Shown: piece after piece, positions 25,480-27,096 of the stretch
How the letters are laid out: each line of letters opens with the position of its first letter
How positions within the stretch are numbered: the first letter of the stretch is position 1
Assembly (NCBI GenBank): GCA_944372205.1
Contig: CALVYM010000002.1
Location: forward strand, 1-38,104
Source: an uncultured Bacilli bacterium
GTDB taxonomy: Bacteria; Bacillota_I; Bacilli_A; RF39; UBA660
Length of the DNA stretch: 38,104 nucleotides
Reading direction: 5' to 3'
Translations under genes and position numbers: made by a program
Notes under the pieces: generated by a model
Database searches by the model: none
What the model was told of the DNA's origin: nothing
Seen by the model: only the letters and a program-made list of their open reading frames with translations

Positions 25480-27096
25480 ATGAATATAGAATTATATAGT
25501 TACAAAAATTTAAGTTTAGGAACTAAAGAACTTATGAAATATGCTTGTTCAATTTATCAAACGATGTTAAATAAATCAAGTAATACTAAAGATACCATAA
25601 GAAGTGCTGTAATAGATTCTTATGGTAGTGAAGAAAAATTTGCTTATGCCCTGTATTTAGCATTTTTCTTTGCAGATAATAGTTGGGGAACAAAATTAAC
25701 ATCTTATAAAGATTTAAATATTGATGATTTATTGGGTTTTGTTTGTTTAAAAAAAGAGGATATTAAAATATTAGAAGAGAAAGAAATTGTTGAAATTTAT
25801 AAAAAATATTATCAAATTATAATAGCTAAAATTTCTAATAAATCAGAAGAAATTAAATTTATGAGTCCTGAAGTTCTTTATGGTTTATTTTATGAAATAT
25901 TTTGGGGTAATACAAAAATATTAGATGCTTTTGCTCAAAAATTTATGCCATATTTAAGTAGCTTTAAATATCATAAAAGTTTTGATGATGCCCATAATTA
26001 TGCCATTAAAAATGGTAGTTTAAAAGTACTTGATGAAATGGCTCATGAAGAGGCATCAACAATTACAGATTTAGTTGCTTTAGAAAAGAAAAATTGTATT
26101 AGTTTAAATAGTGATAAATTATGGACTTTGTTAGAAGATATCAAGAAAAAATTTGTTGGTCAAGAAGAAACAGTAGAAAATTTATTTTATAATATTGTTA
26201 ATAATTTATCTATTGCTCTTAATAATGGGGATGCTTCTAGTCGATCAATTATTTTTCTTGATGGTTCAACAGGAACGGGTAAAACAGCTATAACTAGTGC
26301 TATTTCAAGTGGATTAAATGTTCCTTTTGCAGCATCATCAATTACTAACTATTCAGCAACGGGTTATGTCGGTGGTAATATAACTGATACTTTGATTAGT
26401 TTATATAATAATGCTCATGGTAATTTAGAAAAGGCCAAAAGAGGCATAATTGTTTTTGATGAATTTGATAAATTAGCAATTAAAGGTAATAATTTAGAAA
26501 TGAAAAAAGCCGTTCAACAACAACTTCTAGACTTTTTAGGTGGTGGAAAATATTTTATAAATCCTAGTTCAACTGAAAAAAACATTGAGTTTGATACATC
26601 AAAGATTACTTTTGTTTGCCTTGGAGCCTTATCAGAATTAAGAGATGAATTGATTAATGTATCTAATCCTATTGGTTTTGAAAGGTATTTTGAAAGCACT
26701 CATGATACTTATGAGATAACTCCCGATGATTTAGTAAGAATTGGTTTAGAACGCGAATTAGTGGGAAGATTTAATACGTATTTACATACCAATGATTATA
26801 CTAAAGAAGATTTATATAAAATATTAACTGAATCATCAATTAGTCCATTAAAAACTTTTGAAGAATTAGTTAAAAATAACGGCAAAAAATTAGTAATCGG
26901 CGAGGGAGTTTTAGAAATTATTGTTGATGAAGCATATAAATTAAAAACTGGAGCTAGAAGTTTACAGACAATTGTAAATAGTATTAGAACAAAATATTTA
27001 AAAGAGATTTTAAGAAGTTCATCTGACACAATTTATTTAGATAAAGAAATAGTGTTAGAAATTACTGGTAATACTTTTAAGAGAATTAGAAGATAA
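25480..27096 (+). CDS. ClpX-paralog AAA+ unfoldase with a novel ~220-aa N-terminal domain (no zinc finger)
   Basis: From about aa 222 the protein is collinear with ClpX:
- FVGQEE
- Walker A GSTGTGKT
- pore-1 loop ATGYVGGN (nt 26362-26373)
- Walker B IIVFDEFDK
- QQQLLDFLGG
- IGF tripeptide NPIGFE (nt 26671-26679)
- LVGRF
- sensor-2 TGARSLQ

The N-terminal region has no CxxC pairs. Confidence 0.85.
   Translation: MNIELYSYKNLSLGTKELMKYACSIYQTMLNKSSNTKDTIRSAVIDSYGSEEKFAYALYLAFFFADNSWGTKLTSYKDLNIDDLLGFVCLKKEDIKILEEKEIVEIYKKYYQIIIAKISNKSEEIKFMSPEVLYGLFYEIFWGNTKILDAFAQKFMPYLSSFKYHKSFDDAHNYAIKNGSLKVLDEMAHEEASTITDLVALEKKNCISLNSDKLWTLLEDIKKKFVGQEETVENLFYNIVNNLSIALNNGDASSRSIIFLDGSTGTGKTAITSAISSGLNVPFAASSITNYSATGYVGGNITDTLISLYNNAHGNLEKAKRGIIVFDEFDKLAIKGNNLEMKKAVQQQLLDFLGGGKYFINPSSTEKNIEFDTSKITFVCLGALSELRDELINVSNPIGFERYFESTHDTYEITPDDLVRIGLERELVGRFNTYLHTNDYTKEDLYKILTESSISPLKTFEELVKNNGKKLVIGEGVLEIIVDEAYKLKTGARSLQTIVNSIRTKYLKEILRSSSDTIYLDKEIVLEITGNTFKRIRR

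Follow-up and report, generated by a model that had tools for sequence, protein, structure and literature searches.

How far can the recognition layer of a ClpX-type unfoldase be exchanged while its motor is kept? The question is raised by a gene for a 538-residue ATPase in a 38,104-nucleotide (nt) stretch of contig CALVYM010000002.1 (assembly GCA_944372205.1), from an uncultured Bacilli bacterium of the RF39 lineage; the whole stretch is called the window here. A preliminary description, made from the sequence alone, had read the gene as a ClpX paralogue with a new N-terminal domain, possibly still coupled to ClpP. The specificity of ClpX is normally set by its zinc-finger domain, by the RKH loops and by adaptors such as SspB. 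We conclude that the window ATPase is a lineage-specific ClpX variant with a novel putative recognition domain. Our joint reading, to which we give a probability of about 0.6, is that it is a hexameric ClpX-type unfoldase with a novel helical recognition domain, that it most likely feeds ClpP, and that it had an ancestral partner protein of 118 amino acids (aa).

The ring and its N-terminal domain

Residues ~222-538 had been described as collinear with ClpX, and this was borne out by similarity far above chance in NCBIfam, PDB and Foldseek searches. The NCBIfam ClpX model covered residues 211-527 of the ATPase (E value 2.6e-48; second model, 2e-42), and its best sequence relatives in PDB were all ClpX, with E. 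coli ClpX matching over residues 225-504 (E value 1.5e-30). When a full-length AlphaFold model (predicted local distance difference test score [pLDDT] of 79) was compared with PDB by Foldseek, all of the top 50 matches were ClpX chains (template modelling [TM] scores by target length, 0.73-0.81). The Walker A motif, the GYVG pore loop, Walker B, NPIGFE with its IGF tripeptide and the sensor-2 motif GARSLQ were found where the preliminary description had placed them. Furthermore, the IGF that it had assigned to the ClpP-docking loop did align with that of E. coli ClpX: NVSNPIGFERY of the ATPase pairs with ETGSGIGFGATV, which places IGF opposite I268-G269-F270, in the E. coli segment GSGIGFGA. 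In the model, the tripeptide sits in an unstructured 22-residue loop flanked by two helices. The pore-2 region is shorter than in E. coli ClpX.

Next, we looked at the first ~220 residues, which had been said to lack CxxC pairs and to resemble nothing recognised. Both statements held. Residues 1-221 contain no CxxC; the cysteines at positions 23, 89 and 206 were confirmed, and there is a further one at 380. Residues 1-222 were modelled by AlphaFold2 with a 25-sequence alignment (pLDDT 81.7, predicted TM score 0.76), and the model consists of an all-helical domain of ~186 residues, a disordered linker at residues 187-207 and a helix that leads into the ring. The pLDDT was below 50 at residues 187-207 in both the N-terminal and the full-length model, and the length and sequence of the linker differ across the family. 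A Foldseek comparison of the N-domain model with PDB gave no fold match (best E value 0.41, TM score ≤ 0.21), and a profile search of PDB sequences with the N-domain likewise gave none. A Pfam scan of the N-terminal ~220 residues in the window and of 25 family N-domains matched no family and no zinc finger. An internal duplication of four helices was also sought within the N-domain, and the two halves aligned to each other by hhalign with a probability of 0.2 %, which indicates no repeat. Residues 1-186 are thus a new domain without detectable relative in Pfam or PDB, and the all-helical fold and the lack of CxxC support the view that a different, novel domain has taken the place of the ClpX zinc finger.

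In an exhaustive profile search, this N-domain was present in just 108 of 1.84 billion representative proteins. It is N-terminal in every full-length member, the exceptions being fragments cut by contig ends and the second copy in P0244, a form with two N-domains.

The family, its partner and its variants

A protein search with the ATPase gave 687 matches, with more than 100 full-length relatives of ~560 aa at 43-47 % identity over 99 % of the length; since the alignment runs over 99 % of the length, the N-domain is conserved as well. The sole name that these relatives carry at source is 'AAA family ATPase'. Intact orthologues of the window ATPase were found at 76-98 % identity. A complete scan of 185,579 species, one genome per species, for the family-specific motif AVQQQLLDF returned 58 stretches, and ~42 species were true carriers, all of them uncultured gut 'Bacilli/Tenericutes' metagenome-assembled genomes (MAGs). 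The window organism itself was present in chicken-gut metagenomes. No member of the family was encoded in the viral contigs searched, and we found no description of the N-domain ATPase family in the literature. These results indicate that the family is lineage-restricted, uncharacterised and not phage-borne.

Conservation of the ring motifs was assessed in 117 family sequences. The first position of the docking tripeptide was I in 107 sequences, M in 5 and L in 5, the second was G in 116, and the third was F in all 117. Pore-1 was also conserved (G, Y and the last G in 117, V in 112), as was Walker B (D327 in 116/117, E328 and D330 in 117/117), and the G, A, R, L and Q of sensor-2 were invariant. 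Within the window subclade, the ratio of nonsynonymous to synonymous substitution rates was 0.13-0.22 for the ring and 0.22-0.48 for the N-domain, which indicates purifying selection on both.

Mapping of the gene neighbourhood showed that a conserved downstream partner exists, but that it is none of the orphan proteins encoded after the ATPase in the window. In nearly all family loci outside the window subclade, the gene for a conserved protein of ~118 aa begins 2-3 nt past the ATPase stop codon; second or tandem copies and locus L254 depart from this. The N-terminus of the protein reads M-x-Y-E-Y-N-G-N-L-x-E-x-D/E-R-I-N, 27 of its positions are invariant, and it had no match in Pfam or PDB. 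A search of the whole window for this partner found none (best hmmsearch E value 0.22). We also considered whether the 147-aa protein downstream of the window ATPase is a diverged partner and rejected this (hhalign probability, 0.3 %). As judged from these sequences, the window subclade has lost the partner. By analogy with ClpS-ClpA and MecA-ClpC, the 118-aa protein could be an adaptor, a regulator or a dedicated client that binds the N-domain. Two contigs of the MAG Lapin-019__bin10 (L021 and L271) hold two family copies, of which a single one is accompanied by the 118-aa partner.

Full-length proteins with the N-domain have two main architectures, built on either a ClpX-type ring or a single ring of the ClpC-D1 type. 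The former make up ~33 clusters at 50 % identity, and a motif scan found [I/L/M]GF in all of them except three and the degenerate P0256, a pseudo-ATPase with the N-domain. Of these three, P0271 carries TGF instead, and P0275 is possibly a truncated sequence. In a further ~20 clusters, of ~500-530 aa, the N-domain stands ahead of a single ClpA/B/C D1-type ring. The best PDB match of one of these, P0300, was the D1 ring of ClpC1 (E value 2.4e-43), with residue 216 opposite ClpC residue ~175. Single-ring proteins of this kind, of ~510 aa and without D2, are P0300 (L286, 3292-4830), P0313, P0329, P0336, P0342, P0347 and P0288. The N-domain with a single D1-type ring is an undescribed 'half-ClpC' architecture, in which the N-domain occupies the place of the Clp N-domains. 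Two contexts of D1-type genes were informative: one adjoins gltX-cysS-mrnC-rlmB, which in B. subtilis is the neighbourhood of clpC, and the other lies elsewhere. Because this second gene has an unlike context, the positional argument from the clpC locus is weak. Three loci (L013, L024 and L242; for example, L024 3246-4256, minus strand) have a ClpC-D1-type open reading frame (ORF) of ~337 aa without the N-domain ~6 kb upstream of the family gene.

Other variants bear on what the N-domain and the IGF loop do. The 696-aa P0258 joins the N-domain to a long array of LPENIGG-type leucine-rich-like repeats and has no ATPase, which suggests that the N-domain can act as a stand-alone binding module. 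A tandem paralogue in L026 (CAMMQC010000006.1, 8271-9875), adjoining a family gene at 9992-11680, has the same N-domain and a GYRG pore loop, and its IGF loop is deleted. P0249 likewise has GYRG and a deleted IGF loop, and P0271 combines GYRG with its TGF. Since the variants that lose IGF also have a changed pore loop, the two features are suggested to be functionally linked, and the IGF-less or TGF variants could be forms that do not depend on ClpP, or could take part in mixed hexamers.

Weighing the proposed mechanism

We propose that six copies of the ATPase would form a ring and that this ATP-driven ring, with its ClpX-type pore-1 loop, would grip and unfold substrates. Because [I/L/M]GF and the ClpX-type ring are kept, the enzyme most likely feeds ClpP: the loop would dock onto ClpP, and unfolded substrates would most likely be passed into it. 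The zinc finger is replaced by the ~186-residue helical domain on a flexible linker of ~35 residues, and the occurrence of this N-domain on both ClpX-type and ClpC-D1-type rings means that it is best read as an exchangeable module that would recognise substrates or adaptors. The ancestral family probably works with the translationally coupled helical protein of ~118 aa. The window subclade has lost this partner and has an HD-domain gene directly downstream, and in the window species an autonomous cassette of four genes has been inserted between the ATPase and the HD gene.

Several observations weigh against this reading. First, the ATPase falls below the curated cut-offs of the ClpX equivalogs NF003745 and TIGR00382 (164.9 and 145.6 bits; cut-offs, 359 and 370.75). 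Second, the RKH loop is absent: E. coli GGRKHPQQEF lies opposite SSTEKN and a 5-residue gap, and the family consensus at this position is GNDMNE, without RKH. RKH loops help canonical ClpX in recognising ssrA tags. Third, descent of the N-domain from the two repeats of Clp_N is unsupported, as Clp_N matched 0/25 N-domains and 0/7 D1-type relatives. A comparison with a B. subtilis ClpC N-domain gave an hhalign probability of 0.2 %, and neither Foldseek nor the PDB profile search supported Clp_N ancestry, which leaves positional evidence for it. Fourth, co-evolution of the 118-aa partner and the N-domain was not seen, the N-domain divergence of the partner-less subclade (26 %) lying on the family-wide trend. 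Finally, the overlap between the ~42 family-bearing assemblies and the ~200 clpP loci among the matches listed was zero.

We sought clpP in five ways: an AT-rich motif scan, a lineage-proximal ClpP query, the intersection of assemblies, a ClpP profile search (which was saturated) and co-variation of depth. Related low-GC gut Bacilli MAGs commonly encode genuine ClpP, with an identity of about 57-74 % to the B. subtilis protein. The depth co-variation of clpP and the family across four metagenomes was noisy. One MAG (L082) has uvrA-lgt-trxB-yvcK-whiA with clpP alongside, and uvrA-lgt-trxB is common to the family loci L010, L019 and L024; synteny of family loci with the whole uvrA-lgt-trxB-yvcK-whiA-clpP block was rejected, as just uvrA-lgt-trxB is in common. 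In related MAGs (for example, Mycoplasma sp. CAG:611), full-length two-ring Clp ATPases of 760-800 aa are encoded near clpP. No tmRNA gene, whose tag was sought as a clue, was found in the family loci examined.

The alternative that survives best, which we regard as possible though on the whole doubtful, is that the gene is the sole ClpX of its lineage rather than a paralogue. It would have had its zinc finger swapped and diverged rapidly in a genome-reduced clade, and would serve general ClpXP housekeeping. Remnants of a clpX-like neighbourhood are consistent with this. At L023 the order is family gene, partner, ffh, a 139-aa gene, lonA, a 234-aa gene and a ysxE-like gene, and at L014 engB lies about 2 kb upstream of the family gene. 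Both lonA and engB echo the tig-clpX-lon-engB region of Firmicutes, and given these vestiges the family may be a clpX native to the lineage that has been heavily remodelled; such surroundings, however, occur in just 2 of about 45 contexts. Most genomes have one copy, in ordinary chromosomal contexts, but tandem and second copies exist, and the loss of the RKH loop also speaks against a housekeeping ClpX. No canonical clpX was found in about 600 kb of family-bearing loci. As for rapid divergence, a faster evolution than in other Bacilli has been reported for these orders (PMC10868615). The family is nevertheless only 26-34 % identical to canonical ClpX, a value to be set against the figure given above for ClpP of related MAGs. 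Moreover, the AAA+ module is 59 % identical within the family, and a P-type ATPase compared across the same pairs of genomes is 62-64 % identical, so the ring evolves at an ordinary rate within the family. The label 'paralogue' that the preliminary description gave to the window ATPase is therefore best treated as unproven.

A bolder version of our own reading, which we consider unlikely, is that this narrow, fast-evolving clade of gut Bacilli rebuilt its Clp network, with the N-domain placed on its sole ClpX-type ring, where it displaced the universal zinc finger, and on a single-ring ClpC remnant and served by the 118-aa protein as a dedicated co-factor. If true, this would be a wholesale swap of the substrate-selection layer of ClpXP and ClpCP, with the motor and the ClpP interface kept.

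It is less probable still that the protein works independently of ClpP, as a remodelling ATPase or disaggregase-like unfoldase, and that its IGF is a relic or serves some other contact. Canonical ClpX does have ClpP-independent functions. The absence of clpP from the family-bearing assemblies among the matches listed and the existence of intact family members without IGF are what would be expected on this account. On the other hand, a near-invariant [I/L/M]GF in an otherwise variable loop, among sequences about 45 % identical, is hard to explain without a docking partner, and clpP is widespread in the surrounding lineages. The earlier suggestion of possible ClpP coupling is supported by conservation of the tripeptide in 117 sequences, which argues that docking was retained; the listed matches place no clpP in an assembly that bears the family.

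If our preferred reading of a ClpX-type unfoldase feeding ClpP is correct, the motor and the docking loop for ClpP are retained in the family and the whole recognition layer is exchanged, and the family would be a test case for how the specificity of AAA+ proteases is re-engineered in evolution. It points to an uncharacterised control of proteostasis in gut Bacilli that are abundant, uncultured and reduced in genome size. Current annotation gives the family no name beyond 'AAA family ATPase', and Pfam has no entry for its N-domain. The analysis also sets the neighbouring orphan genes apart, as a separate and apparently mobile cassette.

Downstream genes, surroundings and known systems

The preliminary description had held the orphan proteins encoded immediately downstream to be plausible substrates of the ATPase, and the two would then form one dedicated system, with the orphans as substrates or co-factors. 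The spacing between the ATPase and these four genes is tight, there is no terminator between them, and all lie on the same strand. The proposal had looked to synteny in other genomes, and in relatives this synteny is absent. L289, whose ATPase is 76 % identical, aligns to window positions 25411-27085 (82 % nt identity) and then straight to 31714-32367 (84 %), and L290 and L291 (ATPase, 78 % identical) have the same junction from the ATPase to the HD gene. The HD gene of L289 (3901-4569) starts 5 nt past the ATPase; that of L290 and L291 appears frameshifted. In the window subclade, the gene that ancestrally came straight after the ATPase is thus the HD gene, which stands where other loci have the 118-aa partner, and a functional link between the two enzymes is possible. 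In metagenome run X12, an empty-site contig joins 27094 to 31714 with 11 nt between them (depth, 3.6), and the cassette-bearing form co-occurs in the same run at a depth of about 7.7.

The cassette has a life of its own. Its 695-aa protein has two distant relatives among 5.8 billion proteins, and these belong to a four-gene unit of like architecture (159, 657, 576 and 101 aa; 44-55 % identity) in another organism. The related unit has in common with the window a promoter-like stretch, occurs in two unlike upstream contexts with differing downstream flanks, one near a Mob_Pre relaxase, and has a GC content of 0.22 versus 0.29 in its flanks. No ClpX-like gene was found in the 120-250 nt of sequence upstream of the related units, and the cassette lies beside no other family member. 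The four cassette proteins matched nothing in Pfam, NCBIfam, PHROG, PADLOC or PDB, segment-wise scans included, and no terminal repeats were found flanking the cassette. A promoter consensus scan near 27097 gave nothing above chance in this AT-rich DNA. The cassette is an autonomous, apparently mobile unit that shows an insertion/deletion polymorphism and is not a conserved partner of the ATPase. Because it is apparently mobile and absent in relatives, its orphans are neither conserved partners nor likely dedicated substrates, and we consider a joint system very improbable.

An equally remote suggestion is that the ATPase and the 118-aa protein form a mobile two-gene anti-phage or toxin-antitoxin-like module: neighbourhoods are variable, some with Fic, Bro-N, SWIM or HTH genes, but the pair is absent from viral contigs and occurs in no more than one narrow lineage, where genomes usually have one copy and the divergence is comparable to that of housekeeping genes, and PADLOC-DB showed generic AAA similarity alone, in weak matches of the P-loop region (IetA and TRIP13, E value 2e-5 or weaker). 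The window neighbours had no meaningful match there (a weak ZorB match of the upstream transglutaminase gene, E value 0.003).

That upstream gene (23694-25412) encodes a 572-aa membrane-anchored protein with a transglutaminase core and a long poly-Ser linker. L001-L003 and L290/L291 have the gene in the same place ahead of the ATPase (68-83 % conservation); L289 does not. Four window ORFs of 320-522 aa have no Pfam match (10754-12049, plus; 12335-13669, minus; 4471-6039, plus; 1839-2801, plus). Otherwise the window holds ordinary chromosomal content: a two-component system, ABC transporters, SufBD, a CDF transporter, a P-type ATPase, MgsA and a DnaQ-like exonuclease region. The features of the ATPase and of the genes after it are listed in Table 1.

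Table 1. Positions in the window of the ATPase gene, its parts and the downstream genes.
Feature	Position (nt)	Strand	Basis
ATPase gene, 538 aa, ClpX-type AAA+ with novel N-domain	25480-27096	+	Intact ORF; best matched by ClpX models and structures
All-helical N-domain without zinc finger, residues 1-186	25480-26037	+	AlphaFold2 model
Flexible linker and helix entering the AAA+ module, residues 187-222	26038-26145	+	Low pLDDT; variable in family
ClpX-type AAA+ large and small subdomains, residues 223-538	26146-27093	+	NCBIfam, PDB, Foldseek
Walker A GSTGTGKT, residues 262-269	26263-26286	+	G, G, T, G, K and T unchanged in all 117 sequences
Pore-1 loop GYVG, residues 295-298	26362-26373	+	Conserved in family; flexible loop in model
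Walker B IIVFDEFD, residues 323-330	26446-26469	+	Conserved in family
Putative ClpP-docking loop, residues 393-414 (IGF, residues 398-400, nt 26671-26679)	26656-26721	+	Alignment to E. coli ClpX
Arg430 in ELVGRF, at the ClpX arginine-finger position (E. coli EFIGRL)	26767-26769	+	Alignment; R in 117/117
Sensor-2 GARSLQ, residues 491-496	26950-26967	+	Aligns with GARGLR of E. coli ClpX
Inserted four-gene cassette, 4.6 kb	27095-31713	+	Jump in L289; empty-site contig; homologous cassettes in other contexts
Cassette-borne candidate promoter-like stretch (CTTCTTCTTTTTT ... TATGATACAAT)	27097-27129	+	Conserved with cassette copies in L294-L297
Cassette gene, 147 aa	27153-27596	+	
Cassette gene, 695 aa	27598-29685	+	
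Cassette gene, 578 aa	29685-31421	+	
Cassette gene, 99 aa	31421-31720	+	
HD-domain phosphohydrolase gene	31713-32381	+	Pfam HD; directly after the ATPase in L289, L290 and L291

Among known systems, bacterial ClpX (E. coli and B. subtilis) is the closest in its ring. The two are alike in the single-ring AAA+ fold with a module of the HCLR clade, Walker A and B, GYVG, the arginine finger, sensor-2 and the position of IGF. Unlike ClpX, the family has neither the C4 zinc N-domain nor the RKH loop, its pore-2 is shortened, its identity to ClpX is ~27-34 %, and the window ATPase scores less than half of the equivalog cut-off; instead it has a helical N-domain of 186 aa and, in most members, a dedicated partner of 118 aa. 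The phage ClpX-like ATPases (phrog_4339; Pseudomonas phage PA5oct group) are also divergent ClpX-type modules, 31-34 % identical, but the similarity lies in the AAA+ part alone, and the family is chromosomal and absent from viral contigs. Mitochondrial CLPX, too, joins a ClpX-type ring to a lineage-specific N-terminal region and was among the PDB sequence and Foldseek matches; it is, however, eukaryotic, its N-terminal elements are unrelated, and it matched less well than bacterial ClpX (84 versus 110 bits). ClpA-ClpS and ClpC-MecA differ in that the family has one ClpX-type ring and not D1 plus D2, an N-domain without Clp_N similarity, and a 118-aa partner that matches nothing known and would be an adaptor by analogy. 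They are nevertheless alike in plan, with an N-terminal helical domain on a flexible linker and, in most family members, a small protein encoded beside the ATPase, and in sister proteins the same N-domain fronts a ClpC-D1-type ring.

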